Below are positions 9,282 through 48,120 of a stretch of 64,000 nt of DNA, one piece after another. A program made the translations under genes and the position numbers. The stretch comes from a phage. The notes beneath the pieces were generated by a model, which was given only the letters and a program-made list of their open reading frames with translations, was not told the DNA's origin and ran no database searches. Position 1 is the stretch's first letter. Each line of letters starts with the position of its first letter. The stretch lies in sequence record PZ386955.1, one strand, 5' to 3'.

Positions 9282-9461
9282 TTATTTTTGTAGATCATTT
9301 CTTCTTTCCTTTTTGATTACAGCCCCATCACTCCCTTGCCAAACTTCCGATCTGAATTCCATCTCAAACCACTCACCACCGCAAAAACGGTTATGTTCAA
9401 CACGTCTATCTTCCTTCATTGCTTCTTTAGCTTCGATAGAAGTTAGTTCGATGTTTTGCAT
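9282..9461 (-). CDS. hypothetical small protein
   Basis: Track ORF 9282..9635 crosses the divergent intergenic region; trimmed to internal ATG (MQNIEL) with RBS AAAGGAGA. Confidence 0.4.
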   Translation of the reverse strand: MQNIELTSIEAKEAMKEDRRVEHNRFCGGEWFEMEFRSEVWQGSDGAVIKKERRNDLQK

Positions 9462-9579
9462 TTGTTTTTCTCCTTTCATTTGGTATGCGCTAATCTTAAC
9501 AAAATAAAAATGTATGTCAATACTTGATTTGAAATTAGTTTCTGGTACTCTGTGGGTATCGTAACAAAAGAGGTTAGAT

Positions 9580-9870
9580 ATGAACATCACACTAGCAACT
9601 AAGAATATTACAGAAACTTTTGATGGTTTTGGCATTATTATTGCTGTTCATGGGCATAACGAAAAATGGTTAGCCTCTTTTGAAGAGGACAAAGAACGCA
9701 ATGTACGTTTGAATGCACCAATCAAAGTTTTACACCAGGTAGGTGAGAATAAGAAACAATGGAGATCATACAAAGAGTGGAACATTACGAACGAGTTAAT
9801 ACACAAACTTGACAAAGTGATAAACATGTTCGACAATGCACCAAGCAGTGCAAAACGTGTTTTACTATAA
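9580..9870 (+). CDS. hypothetical protein
   Basis: 96 aa; first gene of plus block after divergent region. Confidence 0.55.
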   Translation: MNITLATKNITETFDGFGIIIAVHGHNEKWLASFEEDKERNVRLNAPIKVLHQVGENKKQWRSYKEWNITNELIHKLDKVINMFDNAPSSAKRVLL

Positions 9871-9881
9871 AGGAGAGTGAT

Positions 9882-10235
9882 ATGAAAATTGTACACGATG
9901 AAATTCAATTTGAAGAGAGTGATCTTCTTGATCTGGATGTGACACTAAGTAAACTGATCTACAACGCACTTTCTGCATATCGTGCAAAAGTGATAGCCAC
10001 AAACAATGTTAAAATTCCTAGTGGGTTACTTCGTCGGATGTACCCACACGCTAAAGGTGACTATCTACCTTATATGGAAGAACGAGCAGCAGAACACTGG
10101 TTAGAAATTCTTGAAAAAATGGAGTCCTCTTTTAAAGATTCAACTCCACCTGAAGAAGTTAATGAAAAACAACGGCAAGAGCGTTTAGAAGGTCGTATTT
10201 TGTTTGCTAAGTATTTCCATAATTTGTGGAGCTAA
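9882..10235 (+). CDS. hypothetical protein
   Basis: 117 aa, RBS AGGAGAG. Confidence 0.55.
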   Translation: MKIVHDEIQFEESDLLDLDVTLSKLIYNALSAYRAKVIATNNVKIPSGLLRRMYPHAKGDYLPYMEERAAEHWLEILEKMESSFKDSTPPEEVNEKQRQERLEGRILFAKYFHNLWS

Positions 10236-10333
10236 ACATATCTGGTAAAATCACTTATATGTTCTTAGTATACTTGTGTAAAGAAGTTATCTAACAGGTG
10301 TTGAGTGGACTATTAAATTAGGAGGGCTTTAAT

Positions 10334-10672
10334 ATGTTTAGTAAAGAAATGAGAGAAGTAATTGCCACTTTGGTAGTTGATCATGGTGTTGAAGTTGAGC
10401 GTCACGTTTGGAACGATGAACCTCCTTTCTTCGATTTGGCATCACGAGCTAAAAGTCATATGCACCTGCTGGAAGACGGTAATGAGTTTGTTCTCCGTAT
10501 GCGTTATGATCGAGAGTTTCGAATTCCGCTTGACACTGAACCAGATGGTGTAGTAATGTGGTTGGCAGAACATTTCGCATACGATGCACTACATGGAAGA
10601 AGTTTTGGTAATGAGCGTTGGGATGCCATTTGTCGTAAGCATAATATTGAACCAGAGTACGGGAGTATGTAA
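10334..10672 (+). CDS. hypothetical protein
   Basis: 112 aa, RBS AGGAGGG. Confidence 0.55.
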   Translation: MFSKEMREVIATLVVDHGVEVERHVWNDEPPFFDLASRAKSHMHLLEDGNEFVLRMRYDREFRIPLDTEPDGVVMWLAEHFAYDALHGRSFGNERWDAICRKHNIEPEYGSM

Positions 10673-10923
10673 TGTTAAGTATCAAACCTAAAATGATAAC
10701 AGAAGACGAAGCAGACTTTATTTTCAAATGTGGACGTGTATGGAGAGAATTCACAAAAGGAAATGAAGTGGTGGTTGTTGTTGAACACAAGATATCTATC
10801 CAGGATCTGTTTGGACAATATATTGATGTTATTAAATTAGGTATTGACAAGGGTTTAGTTGAGGTGTTAACATTAGATCAAGTTGAAGCAGAGCACCTCG
10901 ATAAAGTGGTGGTTGAATTTTAA
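10672..10923 (+). CDS. hypothetical protein
   Basis: 83 aa, start overlaps upstream stop. Confidence 0.5.
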   Translation: MLSIKPKMITEDEADFIFKCGRVWREFTKGNEVVVVVEHKISIQDLFGQYIDVIKLGIDKGLVEVLTLDQVEAEHLDKVVVEF

Positions 10924-11131: not shown

Positions 11132-11569
11132 ATGAGTAAAACAAACGTAATCGCAGATAAAGCAACGGATGTACTTCTGAACATGGTTAACGTCACTATT
11201 CAAACAATGAGTGATGTTGTAGAGTTTGGAAAACAACAAATTCCAGAAGTAATCCATCAATTATTAGTGTGGAAAGCAGTATCCGCAGGTTTATGGCAAC
11301 TTTTTAGTATTTGCTTTATGTTTATTACTTTTATTGCTGTGCGGAACCTCGTAAAAGCAATTAAAGATAAAGAATGCCTGTGGTCACGAGATCGCTATGG
11401 TGAAGTATCTGCTTTACCTATTGTTGGTCTTGTTGTCTGTGCTTTCTTTTTCTTTTTAGGATTTGTTATTTTCTTTTCGAATTTTGATTGGCTAAAAATC
11501 ATTATTGCACCAAAAGTGTATCTGATTGAATTTGCTGCTGATTTAATTCGTTCATCTCAACAAAAATAA
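11132..11569 (+). CDS. putative membrane protein
   Basis: 145 aa with several hydrophobic helices. Confidence 0.55.
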   Translation: MSKTNVIADKATDVLLNMVNVTIQTMSDVVEFGKQQIPEVIHQLLVWKAVSAGLWQLFSICFMFITFIAVRNLVKAIKDKECLWSRDRYGEVSALPIVGLVVCAFFFFLGFVIFFSNFDWLKIIIAPKVYLIEFAADLIRSSQQK

Positions 11570-11580
11570 AAGGGGTTAAA

Positions 11581-13191
11581 ATGAAATACACGATTTATGG
11601 TGATATTGTAAGTGTAAATAAAGATATGGGCGTGGAATCTAACTATCTTCCACCTGGATTCTATACTGTTAGTCGTGATCCCCTTGGCAATTATTTTTTA
11701 AGCCGTGGTAATCTAACAGGTGTACCGGATGTTCTGTATGGTGAAACAGAAAAACGAGCAAATCACGTTATCCGTACATTCCATCGCCGGAGTGCACAAG
11801 GTAAAAATACAGGCTTGCTTCTGACAGGAACTAAGGGTAGTGGTAAAACTATGTTAGCCAAACTCATTAGTCGTGATCTTGTAGAAGAAGGTATTCCAAC
11901 TATTATGGTTACTCAAGCCTACAGTGATGCTAATTTCATTGAACTTATTAGCAAGATCACCGACAAAGCAGTGATTATTTTTGACGAGTTTGATAAAGTA
12001 TATGAGAAGAAACAAGATCAAGAAGCACTTCTCACTTTGTTAGATGGTACTGGCAGTGGTAATAAACTGTTTATTCTAACTAAAAACAGTGGCTTTATCT
12101 CTGAATTCTTTCTAAATCGTCCTAGTCGTGTGTTTTATAATTTTAATTATGATAAAATCTCACTAGAAACTATGATTGACTATTTAGATAAAAACCTGGA
12201 TAACAAAGCACACTTTGATAATTTCCAAAGACTTTGGGATGTAAGTTTAGAGTTGTCCTTTGATGTGATCCAAGGTATAGTAGAAGAACTTAATTTCTAC
12301 CCTGATTTATCCTTTAAAGAATGCATCTCTATGATGGGCGTTTCTTTGGGTGGTGGTAATAAATGGGATACTACAAGTATTAACAATTTTAAACGTGGTA
12401 GCGGTTGTCCACAATGTAAGAGGGAGAGACAAACAATGTCCGACGATCAACATATTGCAGATTTCTTTTCTACAGGGGAATTTAAGGAAGGCACTATCTT
12501 CACCAATACAGGGAAACGTAACAAGCGTGATGCAGTATGGATGGTTGAGTGTCCTGTTTGCTCCCATGATGAATATGTTCAAGCAGGTGTTTGTGATGGT
12601 AAATTTTACTCTGCAGGACATAACCTTAAACAAGGGTATATTCCGTGTCGTTGTGGGAACTATCAGTATACAGAAGACCAGATCACCTATAGGGTAAAAA
12701 AGGAAGTAGAAGGGAAAGGGTATGTCTGGGTAGATTGGATTACCAAACCCTCTTCTATAGGTAAGTTTAAATATCTTTGTCTTGTGCATGGTGAGCAGAT
12801 AGGGAGTGCTCGTAATTTATTAAGCCTCGGTCAAGGTTGTCCACAGTGTGCTGGTCATAATCAACAGCAATTATATATTAATATTGTTAAAGATAATGAT
12901 ATTATAGTTGCTCTTAAGTTTGGTATATCTAAAGATAGCGATAGACGATTAAACGGTCAAAATAGCCGTAATCTGTTTTTTATGGAGCGTATTTGTTTAT
13001 ATGATTTTAGCACAGTGAAACAATGTAGGGCTGCTGAAAGAGCTATAAAGAAAAAATTAAAAACTGGTATTTTAACGGCAAGAGAGTTGAAAGATGGTTA
13101 TACAGAAACAGTAAGTGTTTCTGATTTGGAAAATCTTCAAAAAATTATTACACAATATGGTGGCAAATTAGTATACAGTAAGGAGATGTAA
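11581..13191 (+). CDS. AAA-type P-loop ATPase fused to Zn-ribbon repeats and a GIY-YIG-like (T5orf172-like) C-terminal domain
   Basis: Walker A GTKGSGKT, Walker B IIFDEFD; three Cys motifs (GCPQC, CPVC..C, GCPQC); C-terminus YINIVKD..KFGIS..RRL..GYTE resembles GIY-YIG family (tentative). Confidence 0.6.
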   Translation: MKYTIYGDIVSVNKDMGVESNYLPPGFYTVSRDPLGNYFLSRGNLTGVPDVLYGETEKRANHVIRTFHRRSAQGKNTGLLLTGTKGSGKTMLAKLISRDLVEEGIPTIMVTQAYSDANFIELISKITDKAVIIFDEFDKVYEKKQDQEALLTLLDGTGSGNKLFILTKNSGFISEFFLNRPSRVFYNFNYDKISLETMIDYLDKNLDNKAHFDNFQRLWDVSLELSFDVIQGIVEELNFYPDLSFKECISMMGVSLGGGNKWDTTSINNFKRGSGCPQCKRERQTMSDDQHIADFFSTGEFKEGTIFTNTGKRNKRDAVWMVECPVCSHDEYVQAGVCDGKFYSAGHNLKQGYIPCRCGNYQYTEDQITYRVKKEVEGKGYVWVDWITKPSSIGKFKYLCLVHGEQIGSARNLLSLGQGCPQCAGHNQQQLYINIVKDNDIIVALKFGISKDSDRRLNGQNSRNLFFMERICLYDFSTVKQCRAAERAIKKKLKTGILTARELKDGYTETVSVSDLENLQKIITQYGGKLVYSKEM

Positions 13192-26031: not shown

Positions 26032-26360
26032 TAATGTTTAGAACATTGGCTATAATATAAGCTATCCAATAATAATAAGCTATACAATAATAAACATAGT
26101 GAATAATGACCCCCGATGATCATAATGCGCCACCTTCCAGGGGGCGCTATGTGAACACAAAGAAACCTTTCTTGTCAAGAAAAATATTGCCACTATTGCG
26201 CAAAATTATTTATATCTGAATAGATGATTTTTCATACTATTGCCCCCAATACTATCCCTATTTGTTGCCCTAACTATTGTCATTTGTTGAGCCTACTTTC
26301 TTAAAAGCGCAATAAATCAGAATTATCTTGATTTTTAGGGCGTTTTATAGTATAGAAAAT

Positions 26361-26384
26361 ATGCAAATGATAATCATTATCAGC
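26361..26384. promoter_or_regulatory. Fur-box-like motif, copy 3
   Basis: GCAAATGATAATCATTATC, 17 of 19 matches to Fur consensus. Confidence 0.4.
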
Positions 26385-26548
26385 TATCTTCCACGGGTGG
26401 CACTATTTCACGCAGGATCATTTCATTTGGCAAGGTGTATATAGATGTTTAGACTTGCCAAGCCATTGATTTACTTAGAATTTATCTGTTTTGTTGTGAG
26501 TAGTACCTTTCTTGCTCAGAAAATAATCAAAAGTCTTATAAGTCATTG

Positions 26549-26577
26549 AATGATAATGCAAATGATAATTATTCTCA
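26549..26577. promoter_or_regulatory. Fur-box-like motif, copy 4 (tandem half-sites)
   Basis: GATAATGCAAATGATAATTATTCTC. Confidence 0.35.
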
Positions 26578-26950
26578 TTGATATTTGAGGGGGACGGTCG
26601 GCAGAAATCGGGGGGCGCTGAAAATCGCGTTAAGCACCTCTCGCAAGCGAGCAGTATTTTGCGGCAAGTTATTGATATTATTGACTTTACGCTTATGAAA
26701 AGGGGGTGTGTCGAAATAAATCGGGTATACCGGAAAAATTTTGTGGCATAGATATTTATTTGTCTATATTATGTACAAAGGGGTGTGTTAAAAATAATAG
26801 GTATATATAGAATAATTGATAGGGAATACCTATACTAATTCCTATACTAAATCCTTCATTAATGATGTTTCTATGGTGCTGTTCTTGTAATAGATGAAAA
26901 GACGCTGTATGATGTGTGGCATGAAACGTAAATTTATAAAGGAGTCTGAT

Positions 26951-27467: not shown

Positions 27468-27825
27468 TATTCCGTTGAGTAGTGCAGCTTTAATACGATT
27501 CTATAAAGCATGGATTGCCAACCATCCGGCAATGAATCGCACAACGAGTGGCTTGTGTGGTTGTCTGGTAGATTATGTAGATGATTTTGTTGGTGAGGTA
27601 ACTAGAGAAGAAGATAAAAGATGGCGTGATCGTTTGTTGGATAGTTTGAAATACGAAATGAGGAAACAATTTACATGTGCAGGACTGGACTACAATCTTC
27701 CGTTCAATGCAGATTGCATGGATTACCTTTCAGAGTGTATAGACTTGGCGTGTCATACCAACACGTTACGTCTTCAATGGGTGAAAGACAGAATCGAAGA
27801 TGCAAATAATGCTTGCATTGAATAG
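27457..27825 (+). CDS. hypothetical protein, paralog family A member 2
   Basis: RBS AGGAGGTG; motifs FYKAW, GLCGCL, FTCAGL..LPFN, CHTN..RLQWVKDRI. Confidence 0.6.
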   Translation: MKSNIPLSSAALIRFYKAWIANHPAMNRTTSGLCGCLVDYVDDFVGEVTREEDKRWRDRLLDSLKYEMRKQFTCAGLDYNLPFNADCMDYLSECIDLACHTNTLRLQWVKDRIEDANNACIE

Positions 27826-27895
27826 AAATGTCTGTACACTGTGTTCCATAAGATATGCAATATCGCGCATAACAAACTACTAATGAGAGGTGTAA

Positions 27896-43651: not shown

Positions 43652-43909
43652 TTATTCTACAGGAACTTCTTCACCAAGAGAAACTTCTAAACGGAATGCT
43701 TTACTTTCAATACATTCACTACCTTTTAGAAAATCAAATTGCACTATAGACTGACTTAATAGAATAGATAGAATCACATCGCAATCTTCACTAGGAGCTA
43801 GATGTTTGTATTCTTCCTTCAAGGTAACATCATAAAAACATAAATCCCCTACTCCTAGTTCATCCCATCCTTCCCACGCATCTACAAAGTTAAACTCTAA
43901 ACCTTTCAT
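43652..43909 (-). CDS. hypothetical protein
   Basis: 85 aa ORF. Confidence 0.5.
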   Translation of the reverse strand: MKGLEFNFVDAWEGWDELGVGDLCFYDVTLKEEYKHLAPSEDCDVILSILLSQSIVQFDFLKGSECIESKAFRLEVSLGEEVPVE

Positions 43910-47196: not shown

Positions 47197-47859
47197 TTAT
47201 TTAATATTCAATTTTGCACAAAGACGTTGTACCGCTTTGGCATCGAACAAACTCCCACGAATAGTTCTCTTTCCTGATTCATTCAGATGCTTTGCAATCG
47301 TCATATATGGCGTTTTACAAGCTCTGTATGCAACTAAAGAATCTTTTAAAGAAAGCGCAAACTCTTTTGAGCGTTTTGCTTCTTCCGTTTTCGTATAATC
47401 TGTTCTTTTGTATTTAGGGTTTGCTGCACCAAGAAGCGTTCCCTTCGCTTTTGCTACTTTAAGGCTCTTCTTAACACGATCAGATATTGCACGAGCCTCT
47501 TCTTCTGCCAGAACTGCTAAAATATTTATTATCATATTTTCAGCGGAGGGCATAGTTGCTATTCGTACATTAATCATCTCTAACAAGGTTGCAACAGAAG
47601 CTGTGTTACGTCCAAGACGGTCAACCTTAGCAACAACAAGTGTAGCACCTGTTTCTTTGCAAAGATTAACAGCTTTCACAAGCTCTCTACGTTGCTTCCA
47701 ATCGCCTTTACCCGAATAAAACTCTGCAAAGCTACCTACAATAGTATAATTTTCTTGTGAATCCAGGAAGCGTTGGATATCTGCTTCCTGTGATTCTATA
47801 CCATACTGGTTGCCTTGTTGTTTCTTCTTAGAAAGTCGATGATATAGTACAAACTTCAT
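47197..47859 (-). CDS. serine recombinase (resolvase/invertase family)
   Basis: N-terminal YHRLSKKKQQ..GIESQ catalytic-Ser region, VVAKVDRLGRN, C-terminal HTH-like tail. Confidence 0.7.
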   Translation of the reverse strand: MKFVLYHRLSKKKQQGNQYGIESQEADIQRFLDSQENYTIVGSFAEFYSGKGDWKQRRELVKAVNLCKETGATLVVAKVDRLGRNTASVATLLEMINVRIATMPSAENMIINILAVLAEEEARAISDRVKKSLKVAKAKGTLLGAANPKYKRTDYTKTEEAKRSKEFALSLKDSLVAYRACKTPYMTIAKHLNESGKRTIRGSLFDAKAVQRLCAKLNIK

Positions 47860-47916
47860 AATACCCTCCTGTTCTGTTACAGGAAGTATGCACTACCTTA
47901 ATGTTAAAGTCAACAG

Positions 47917-48120
47917 TTAAGTAGTGGTAATATCATCTTCTTGAATACCAGGGTCAACTTCTGCAAAGATAGCCTCTACAGGAATTTCTTCACCTGCTAT
48001 TCTAGAAAGAAGCACTGAACCAATAGCTTTTGCGTGTTCTTCAGATTCCGCATAAACATTAGTTCCTGTGTCTTTTTTCTTAGTTTCGTTAAAATATACC
48101 AGATAGTAATTGTATGCCAT
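47917..48120 (-). CDS. hypothetical protein
   Basis: 67 aa ORF. Confidence 0.5.
   Translation of the reverse strand: MAYNYYLVYFNETKKKDTGTNVYAESEEHAKAIGSVLLSRIAGEEIPVEAIFAEVDPGIQEDDITTT

Follow-up and report, generated by a model that had tools for sequence, protein, structure and literature searches.

Why a strictly lytic phage lineage should long have retained a site-specific recombinase that is predicted to be catalytically intact is the question raised by a small gene in the window, the whole 64,000-nucleotide stretch of phage DNA analysed here (PZ386955.1). Beyond its biological interest, the question has a practical side. The phi92-like and phAPEC8-like phages are popular phage-therapy candidates, and any gene labelled "recombinase" or "integrase" is flagged in automated safety screening, so it is useful to show that the encoded protein, gp053, is conserved, is not an integrase and has no prophage state in thousands of host genomes. 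Three roles had been offered in the preliminary description of the locus: resolution of replication or packaging intermediates, control of an invertible switch located elsewhere, and membership of a mobile insert.

The window derives from a phi92-like myovirus of the genus Justusliebigvirus (Stephanstirmvirinae) and is 98–99% identical to 56 phage records, in keeping with the otherwise lytic-type genome first described. Its recombinase is 100% identical to phi92 gp053 (YP_009012384.1), the name used below, and lies at the same place between gp052 and gp054 in the same operon, with no difference between the two. The finding is an ordinary one in that the gene is already annotated and already in databases as phi92 gp053, under the GenBank labels "DNA invertase/recombinase" and 'putative recombinase, resolvase family protein / DNA invertase'; the searchable literature contained no experimental or functional work on it. 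The surrounding genes form a long minus-strand operon of nucleotide and DNA metabolism, encoding PhoH, an HslV-like peptidase, methyltransferases, a phosphatase, a DprA-like protein, ribonucleotide reductase, thymidine kinase and ligase. The flanking ORFs (67, 67 and 83 aa), already described as small and unassigned, have no match in Pfam, NCBIfam or PADLOC. A methyltransferase located 505 bp upstream of the recombinase gene had been called Dam-like; its proximity holds, although the label is only loosely right because the protein matches no Pfam family.

Table 1. Features of the recombinase locus and of two further segments discussed in the text (window coordinates).
Feature	Coordinates	Strand	Basis
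Serine recombinase gene, orthologue of phi92 gp053; ATG start, 220 aa plus stop	47197..47859	−	ORF listing, Pfam, identity to gp053
N-terminal catalytic (resolvase) domain, aa 1–141, long E-helix included	47437..47859	−	
Catalytic Ser codon S10 (TCT), motif Y6-x-R8-L-S10	47830..47832	−	Sequence read and alignment
C-terminal four-helix DNA-binding domain, aa 156–220; probable truncated 'recombinase domain' of large-serine-recombinase type, not HTH_7	47200..47394	−	
Ribosome-binding site AGGAGGG, 4 nt ahead of ATG	47864..47870	−	Sequence read
Sigma-70-like promoter candidate TTGACT-17-CATACT, within the 57 bp preceding the recombinase gene	47885..47913	−	Consensus scan, weak
DNA methyltransferase (amino-methyltransferase), 169 aa	48364..48873		PHROG 799, NPPF motif, weak PADLOC MTase_II
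Block inverted relative to phi92 (~0.9 kb)	9360..10230		Whole-genome comparison
Terminal repeat	~26290..26632		

The window gene is a real, intact and expressed-looking small serine recombinase, predicted to be catalytically competent. Residues 4–141 match the Pfam Resolvase profile (PF00239) with E = 8.4e-22 and 78 bits, above the cut-off of 23.3; the best PHROG is 125, 'DNA invertase' (E = 1e-31), and the structures of Sin, Tn3 and gamma-delta resolvase and Gin are remote matches (E of 1e-5 to 1e-3). In an alignment with manually entered reference sequences of gamma-delta resolvase and Hin, S10 coincides with the catalytic serine of both, and D80, R81, R84, E121 and R128 fall on D67, R68, R71, E118 and R125 of gamma-delta resolvase. 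These positions belong to the constellation used for comparison (Y6, R8, S10, D67, R68, R71, E118 and R125 in gamma-delta numbering). Across 27 relatives down to 30% identity, residues Q24, E46, G50, R57, D80, R81, R84, E121, R128 and G140 are invariant, as is S49 in the alignment with gamma-delta resolvase, Hin and relatives; Y6, R8 and S10 are nearly so, the sole exception being a truncated sequence. A profile score above the gathering threshold and a complete Ser/Arg/Asp/Glu constellation place gp053 in the serine recombinase superfamily. With the catalytic residues both complete and invariant, the gene is not a decayed remnant. The intact 220-aa protein of the resolvase/invertase family initially reported is thus borne out by the ORF, PF00239, PHROG 125 and the catalytic residues, the catalytic serine included.

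The promoter candidate upstream of the gene matches the consensus at 9 of 12 positions, no better than regional chance. TTGACA-17-TAxxxT also lies directly upstream of the orthologues in ESCO5 and Shewanella phage 1/40, and the upstream gap of the phiWec181 orthologue is just 10 bp. The evidence that the recombinase gene has a promoter of its own is weak.

Beyond the catalytic domain, which is of resolvase type, gp053 carries what appears to be a truncated 'recombinase domain' of the large serine recombinases as its DNA binder. This C-terminal domain matches PF07508 (recombinase domain) in relatives, and Pfam detected no HTH_7 in the window protein at E ≤ 1. The result is a "half-integrase" architecture, without zinc ribbon and without coiled coil. 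The structurally closest proteins are large serine integrases (Bxb1, SPbeta), but gp053 is less than half the size of large serine recombinases such as Bxb1 gp35, SPbeta SprA, phiC31 Int and CcrB, appears to possess just the first helical part of their recombinase domain and lacks their apparatus for attP/attB directionality; nor is a prophage state known for the phages that carry it. The small recombinases (gamma-delta/Tn3 resolvase, Sin, Hin and Gin) resemble gp053 in size, in catalytic fold and residues and in the long E-helix. They differ from it in that its C-terminal domain is not HTH_7, the sequence similarity is only remote, and no res, hix or gix site, transposase or invertible segment lies beside its gene.

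By domain and site criteria gp053 belongs to none of the Hin/Gin invertases, Tn3-type resolvases, large integrases or IS607 transposases. Large integrases contain a zinc ribbon and an embedded coiled coil in more than 400 aa, whereas the window protein stops at residue 220 after four short helices. The IS607 layout has an N-terminal MerR-like HTH before the catalytic domain, which in gp053 is itself N-terminal, from residue 2. Neither the HTH_7 and close similarity that define the Hin/Gin/Cin/Pin invertases (Gin matches at E ~1e-3) nor an invertible segment with ~26-bp inverted sites beside the gene was found. The three-subsite res and transposase linkage of the Tn3/gamma-delta type are likewise lacking: the upstream gap, only 57 bp long, has no dyad array and is not duplicated elsewhere, and no transposase lies in the neighbourhood. 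Matches to NCBIfam were confined to CcrB, Mpi and YneB, all far below threshold, with 33.5 bits against a cut-off of 272 for the Mpi 'master DNA invertase' (NF009949) and 29.8 bits against 175 for YneB (NF049883). A profile search of 1.84 billion cluster representatives returned at least 3,415 clusters at E ≤ 1e-30, most of them 215–240 aa long and aligned end to end; gp053 is part of a large, distinct family of small recombinases of ~220 aa.

The gene is strongly conserved. By tblastn it is present in 162 phage records; intact orthologues are carried by ~120 genomes of the Stephanstirmvirinae and, further afield, by large lytic phages of Shewanella and Vibrio. Amino-acid identity with the protein of the window is at least 99% in 56 Justusliebigvirus records (100% in at least 40, at least 99.1% in the rest), 78% in Klebsiella phages phi1_175008 and KP2025, 57% in ~65 Phapecoctavirus records, 51% in Klebsiella KP13-16, 49% in Shewanella phage 1/40, which shares the PhoH..DprA neighbourhood, 31–37% in 130-kb Vibrio phages and 28% in Cellulophaga podoviruses. 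The rV5-like Vequintavirinae, the sister group, are not represented among the tblastn matches. Metagenomic relatives occur on ~150 kb phage contigs, or beside rIIB, NAD-salvage and ligase genes of virulent phages. Pairwise comparison of three Justusliebigvirus genes gave 4 nucleotide differences per pair, all synonymous.

The gene is intact in ~120 of 121 genomes. The single damaged copy, in the isolate Schickermooser, has eight small frameshifting deletions, all within the first 330 nt (the catalytic half), and spares the E-helix and the DNA-binding half, which persist as an ORF of 128 aa; the other 63 Phapecoctavirus records have a full-length gene. As Schickermooser is viable despite the frameshifts recorded for it, the phage can do without the recombinase function, at any rate under laboratory conditions. 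The surviving half-gene would suit a protein that binds DNA as a regulator and does not recombine it, for example a repressor of early promoters, and resolvases are known to repress their own promoter as well. Such a role is nonetheless highly improbable, the full catalytic constellation being invariant over deep divergence, where a pure DNA binder would not need it.

The relation to large serine integrases raises the possibility of an integrase for lysogeny, for pseudolysogeny or for integration into a host or plasmid site. These integrases are the closest structures, and one record labels an orthologue 'integrase'. Against this, gp053 ends at 220 aa with neither zinc-ribbon nor coiled-coil domain, and the characterised relatives are all reported to be lytic. 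At blastn sensitivity, 5,426 complete E. coli genomes, plasmids included, contained no sequence matching a 3.9-kb query around the gene. A pattern scan of 185,579 species genomes, of limited sensitivity and built on a narrow alignment, returned no relative above 41% identity. The lack of prophage matches, together with the missing zinc-ribbon/coiled-coil module, makes an integrase role very unlikely; the phage-borne gp053 is not an integrase, and any integrating function is scarcely probable at all.

Recombination sites were sought around the gene, over the window and in complete genomes. Within ±4.5 kb no direct or inverted repeat of any consequence is present, the pairs detected being chance matches of low identity in coding regions, in agreement with the absence of att-like or invertible repeats noted at the outset. 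Over the whole 64-kb window no inverted repeats convincingly bracket a segment, the best pairs being terminator hairpins or promoter consensus, and the 71-bp region upstream of the gene occurs only once, both in the window and in one complete relative. Two complete genomes were assembled from a phage collection, A150 (Justusliebigvirus) and DIJ07P2 (Phapecoctavirus). By self-BLAST and a census of exact repeats they contain no candidate gix/hix/res pair; their repeats are terminators, early-region hairpins with intergenic (promoter) repeats and one diverged paralogue pair, and no inverted repeat other than terminator hairpins, promoter consensus and this paralogue pair reaches 18 nt. Inverted repeats beside the bacterial and plasmid homologues did not rise above chance.

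Three sets of sequences were considered as sites and set aside. A 20-bp direct repeat that brackets gp046..gp053 is statistically unusual; it is absent from Klebsiella phi1_175008 and from Phapecoctavirus, encodes GEE(V/I)PVE in two unrelated proteins and is treated as a coincidence or a small gene-conversion patch. GC-rich palindromic hairpins between small early genes suggested an integron-like arrangement, which was rejected because hairpins of this kind also occur in an rV5-like phage that lacks the recombinase and because the hairpin stems vary with compensating changes between genera. The Fur-box-like palindromes of the terminal repeat are not specific, similar boxes being present in the rV5-like early region.

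The label 'DNA invertase' would imply a programmed switch, with gp053 flipping a segment elsewhere in the phage genome. PHROG 125 and the weak, sub-threshold similarity to Mpi point in this direction, and whole-genome comparison revealed one inverted block (Table 1) whose orientation differs between genomes. The block is inverted relative to phi92 and A150 and collinear with Phapecoctavirus. It lies in the divergent early-promoter region, where the leftward and rightward early operons part, and carries homologues of phi92 gp216 and gp214 and a promoter-proximal gene part of 59 codons; in phi92 this part is fused to the downstream part to give gp217 (183 aa), and in the window the two are separate divergent genes. 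The window orientation occurs in ~23 Justusliebigvirus records and in all of at least 62 Phapecoctavirus records, the phi92 orientation in ~33 Justusliebigvirus records. Orientation, however, follows the flanking haplotype without exception (at least 97.8% identity for the window orientation, at most 96.5% for the other). The junctions contain extra insertions and deletions, their ends share only the microhomology TTACA.CC.CA, and junction alignments revealed no inverted repeat at the ends of the block. The recombinase gene is 37 kb away, and nothing ties the two together. This block is a single old, lineage-fixed rearrangement and not a programmed switch, and no invertible segment is plausibly under the control of gp053. 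Given that the C-terminal domain is unlike the HTH of Hin and Gin and that neither of the two complete genomes contains good inverted repeats, the chance that gp053 is an invertase is small. The suggested switch elsewhere is accordingly disfavoured, the only inversion among ~120 genomes being this one.

The position of the recombinase gene varies between sister genera. It lies in the PhoH..DprA cluster in Justusliebigvirus, Klebsiella phi1_175008, KP13-16 and Shewanella 1/40, and follows a gp013-like gene in the early cluster at the left end in Phapecoctavirus and phiWec181. The 'empty' Phapecoctavirus locus retains gp051, a gp052 homologue and gp054, and what sets it apart from the window is precisely the cassette of candidate promoter plus ORF, with the join at the RBS/ATG of gp052; there gp052 is preceded by the same RBS context as the window recombinase. 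No terminal repeats or target duplications were found at the cassette boundaries between window and Phapecoctavirus, and the locus change looks like ordinary modular exchange at gene boundaries. The gene stayed intact after relocation.

These features bear on the third of the suggested roles, the mobile insert, for which the different loci and the precision of the ORF cassette speak; the absence of terminal repeats and of target duplication, the intactness of the gene in all but one isolate and the synonymous nature of the nucleotide differences seen speak against it. In a related reading, gp053 would be a selfish or accessory, moron-like cassette, cheap or occasionally self-mobilising and of no service to phage replication. 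The gp051-gp052-gp054 remainder with its boundary precisely at the RBS/ATG junction, a promoter that the gene may bring along, its absence from related rV5-like phages and the one frameshifted copy are all consistent with such a cassette. It is nevertheless unlikely: there are no terminal inverted repeats, no second gene and no IS607-type architecture, a single relocation can be inferred in the whole subfamily, and ordinary mosaic exchange among phages typically leaves boundaries at RBS microhomology. The count of ~120 intact genomes of 121, the lack of any non-synonymous change among the three Justusliebigvirus genes compared and catalytic residues that are invariant down to 30% identity also argue against a gene of no use.

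Since the gene moved without linked non-coding sequence, its target need not be adjacent, and whole-genome repeat searches gave no site in the phage genome. Both observations would fit an enzyme that acts on DNA other than that of the phage (host sites, satellites or mobile elements, defence islands, co-infecting phages) as a tool of takeover or counter-defence. There is a precedent in lytic ICP1 phages, which are reported to exploit the serine recombinase of a satellite (PMC9638900, PMC6002521). Orthologues occur, however, in phages of Escherichia, Klebsiella, Shewanella, Vibrio and Cellulophaga, which makes a common host target unlikely unless it co-evolves, and the recombinase has no PADLOC match and no anti-defence signal. 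Action on non-phage DNA is therefore considered distinctly unlikely.

The resolution of replication or packaging intermediates, the first of the suggested roles, remains, on grounds of context, the best guess, and it can be given a more definite form. We tentatively propose that the phage's own DNA is the substrate of gp053, which would carry out simple-site recombination of the deletion type and either cyclise the genome through its terminal repeats or resolve multimers. The protein would be made in the early or middle phase along with the DNA-metabolism genes, and a gp053 dimer would bind a single short site on the phage genome. The enzyme would then recombine two copies of that site in direct repeat, by the subunit rotation usual for serine recombinases. 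The copies might be the 343-bp repeats at the two ends of the linear genome as injected, in which case the outcome would be circularisation, as achieved by Cre-lox for P1, or they might be the same site in neighbouring units of a multimer, in which case the outcome would be resolution, as in plasmid mrs/res systems. Without the zinc-ribbon/coiled-coil module gp053 should lack directionality of the attP/attB type and should not behave as an integrase, and its activity would be helpful to the phage and not essential.

This explanation is supported because the protein is well conserved and its catalytic residues are invariant, the differences between genes are synonymous only and the gene was retained after relocation; because the gene is embedded in an operon of nucleotide and DNA metabolism; and because of the plasmid homologues, the short terminal repeats and the circular permutation of the recombinase-less rV5, considered below.

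Several observations stand against it. The palindromes of the terminal repeat could be terminase, promoter or Fur sites, and none has been tied to gp053; Fur-box-like sequences are found in a recombinase-less rV5-like phage too, and the genome contains no further copy of the region upstream of the gene. Since packaging normally uses concatemers as its substrate, resolving them to monomers late in infection would bring no obvious benefit, and T7 and other phages with short terminal repeats do without a recombinase. The correlation between type of genome end and presence of the gene amounts to one phylogenetic contrast, Schickermooser is viable with a frameshifted gene, and the plasmid analogy is drawn at 35% identity, to uncharacterised proteins.

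That analogy concerns the nearest full-length homologues outside phages, which have the same length as gp053 (~35% identity) and are encoded on small plasmids. On the 7.3-kb Phaeobacter piscinae plasmid pP18_i the remaining genes that can be recognised encode Rep, ParA and an RHH partition protein, and a further homologue is encoded by a 6.4-kb plasmid of Synechococcus elongatus. Annotated as 'recombinase family proteins' of ~220 aa, these homologues share the two-domain architecture of gp053 and align with it over the full length. They differ from it in lying in a plasmid backbone (rep, parA) and not in a lytic phage, and their resolvase role is deduced from position alone; that position is typical, indeed classic, for a multimer-resolution recombinase.

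A second analogy is provided by P1, whose Cre/lox system can cyclise the terminally redundant injected genome and resolve dimers. Cre, like gp053 in the proposed role, is a phage-encoded site-specific recombinase. The likeness is one of function only: Cre is a tyrosine recombinase of an unrelated family, P1 is temperate, and no lox-like site was found for gp053. In the most specific version of the proposal, gp053 would be a minimal 'half-integrase' acting as a Cre-like cyclase that joins the 343-bp repeats at a conserved short palindrome, independently of host RecA; taken in all its particulars, this is rather improbable. Phages with long redundant ends, such as rV5, would on that version not need a recombinase. 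If circularisation through the terminal repeats is real, the replication cycle of a large group of phages would include a further step, and the enzyme would also provide a very compact recombinase of ~220 aa for engineering.

The genome ends themselves are compatible with the proposed role in circularisation or resolution. Concatemer resolution has been put forward as an idea, without data, for the SKA64 orthologue (PMC10282059), and short direct terminal repeats have been described for the Stephanstirmvirinae (PMC12695924). They measure 343 bp in phi92, and 342 bp has been reported for BME3. The recombinase-less rV5 has been reported to be circularly permuted, and one rV5-like genome has no repeat of the phi92 type at the syntenic place. 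In the window the terminal repeat (Table 1) is too diverged between genera to be detected by BLAST, yet its architecture and several short palindromes are kept between them, which allows a Cre-like role in circularisation or resolution.

The small serine recombinase gene, the orthologue of phi92 gp053, has changed locus between lineages: it lies in the early left-end cluster in Phapecoctavirus and phiWec181, and at a different locus in Justusliebigvirus, the Klebsiella phages and Shewanella 1/40. The edge of the recombinase cassette coincides exactly with the RBS/ATG of gp052. The Phapecoctavirus isolate Schickermooser carries a damaged copy with eight small deletions of 1–5 nt, every one inside the first 330 nt, which abolish the catalytic half of the protein and leave a 128-residue C-terminal open reading frame. 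In the 63 other Phapecoctavirus records the gene has its intact length. The damage in this single isolate may be genuine, making the copy a pseudogene, or may stem from sequencing error.

Positions of the features described in the window and in related genomes
Feature	Record	Position	Details
Recombinase gene	ESCO5	10017-10688	
Recombinase gene	DIJ07P2	96280-96942	
Recombinase gene	Window	47197-47859	
Empty recombinase site	DIJ07P2	113565-113831	
Damaged recombinase gene	NC_048196.1 (Schickermooser)	11269-11969	
Direct repeat GGTGAAGAA[G/A]TTCCTGTAGA	Window	43656-43675; 47975-47994	20 bp
Inverted block	Window	9318-10334 (BLAST-defined 9360-10230)	~0.9 kb; divergent early-operon junction
gp217	NC_023693 (phi92)	132145-132696	183 aa; N- and C-terminal parts fused
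gp217 parts, separate genes	Window	9282-9461 (-); 10334-10672 (+)	59 aa; 112 aa
Perfect GC-rich hairpin GGCGGGAAATGGTTTCCCGCC	Window	15539, 18237, 19268, 21944, 23588	21 nt; 5 copies
Terminal repeat, phi92 type	Window	~26290-26632	343 bp, direct; one copy
Strong Fur-box-like palindromes	Window	26363-26381; 26558-26576	Within terminal repeat
Further Fur-box-like positions	Window	14180, 14204, 25493	
Non-coding element (..GATGCAAATAATGCTTGCATTGAATAGAAATGTCTGTA..)	Window	27775-27850	76 bp

The two copies of the direct repeat, which match each other exactly in A150, flank a 4.3-kb block running from gp046 to gp053 and including the recombinase gene. The repeat encodes the residues GEE(V/I)PVE, in gp045 at its end and in gp054 internally, and is not present in Klebsiella phi1_175008 or Phapecoctavirus. 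It is statistically unusual, yet probably reflects coincidence or a small gene conversion.

The early-operon block, in its BLAST-defined extent, lies in the opposite orientation in phi92 and A150 and is collinear in Phapecoctavirus. Among the Justusliebigvirus records, approximately 23 have the orientation of the window and approximately 33 the opposite one, in complete linkage with the flanking haplotype. No inverted repeats were found at the block, the junctions of which are untidy; it is the product of one old inversion event. Associated with the inversion are the two gp217-part genes of the window, which point in opposite directions; because these parts are joined in phi92 and separate here, the inversion splits or fuses a gene.

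The five hairpin copies, against none expected by chance, lie between small early genes. Their Phapecoctavirus counterparts have an identical loop and different stems with compensating changes, and an rV5-like phage carries hairpins that resemble them. They are probably RNA-processing or terminator elements with no link to the recombinase.

The terminal repeat is present as a single copy, which shows that the window record is permuted relative to phi92. It has no BLAST match in Phapecoctavirus, where the architecture is nevertheless kept, comprising the boundary motif ..GCGTTA|AGCAC.., a 21-bp palindrome (AAATCAGAAnnnTCTTGATTT), the block TTGCCAAGCCATTGAT, a promoter and the Fur-box-like palindromes. 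The Fur-box-like sequence GCAAATGATAATCATTATC agrees with the E. coli Fur consensus at 17 of 19 positions, and an rV5-like phage has comparable sequences in its early region; these palindromes may confer iron- or Fur-dependent early control. The non-coding element, which includes a TTGCAT-17-TAnnnT promoter with a dyad upstream of it, is 89–92% conserved across the two genera, and its adjoining genes have been replaced.

Several UNVERIFIED records (MG065639, MG065645, MG065656, MG065689 and others), labelled ‘Campylobacter phage A150, A145, C3, A110a’, are approximately 98.7% identical to Justusliebigvirus, a coliphage genus. Their host labels are probably erroneous as a result of contamination or mislabelling.
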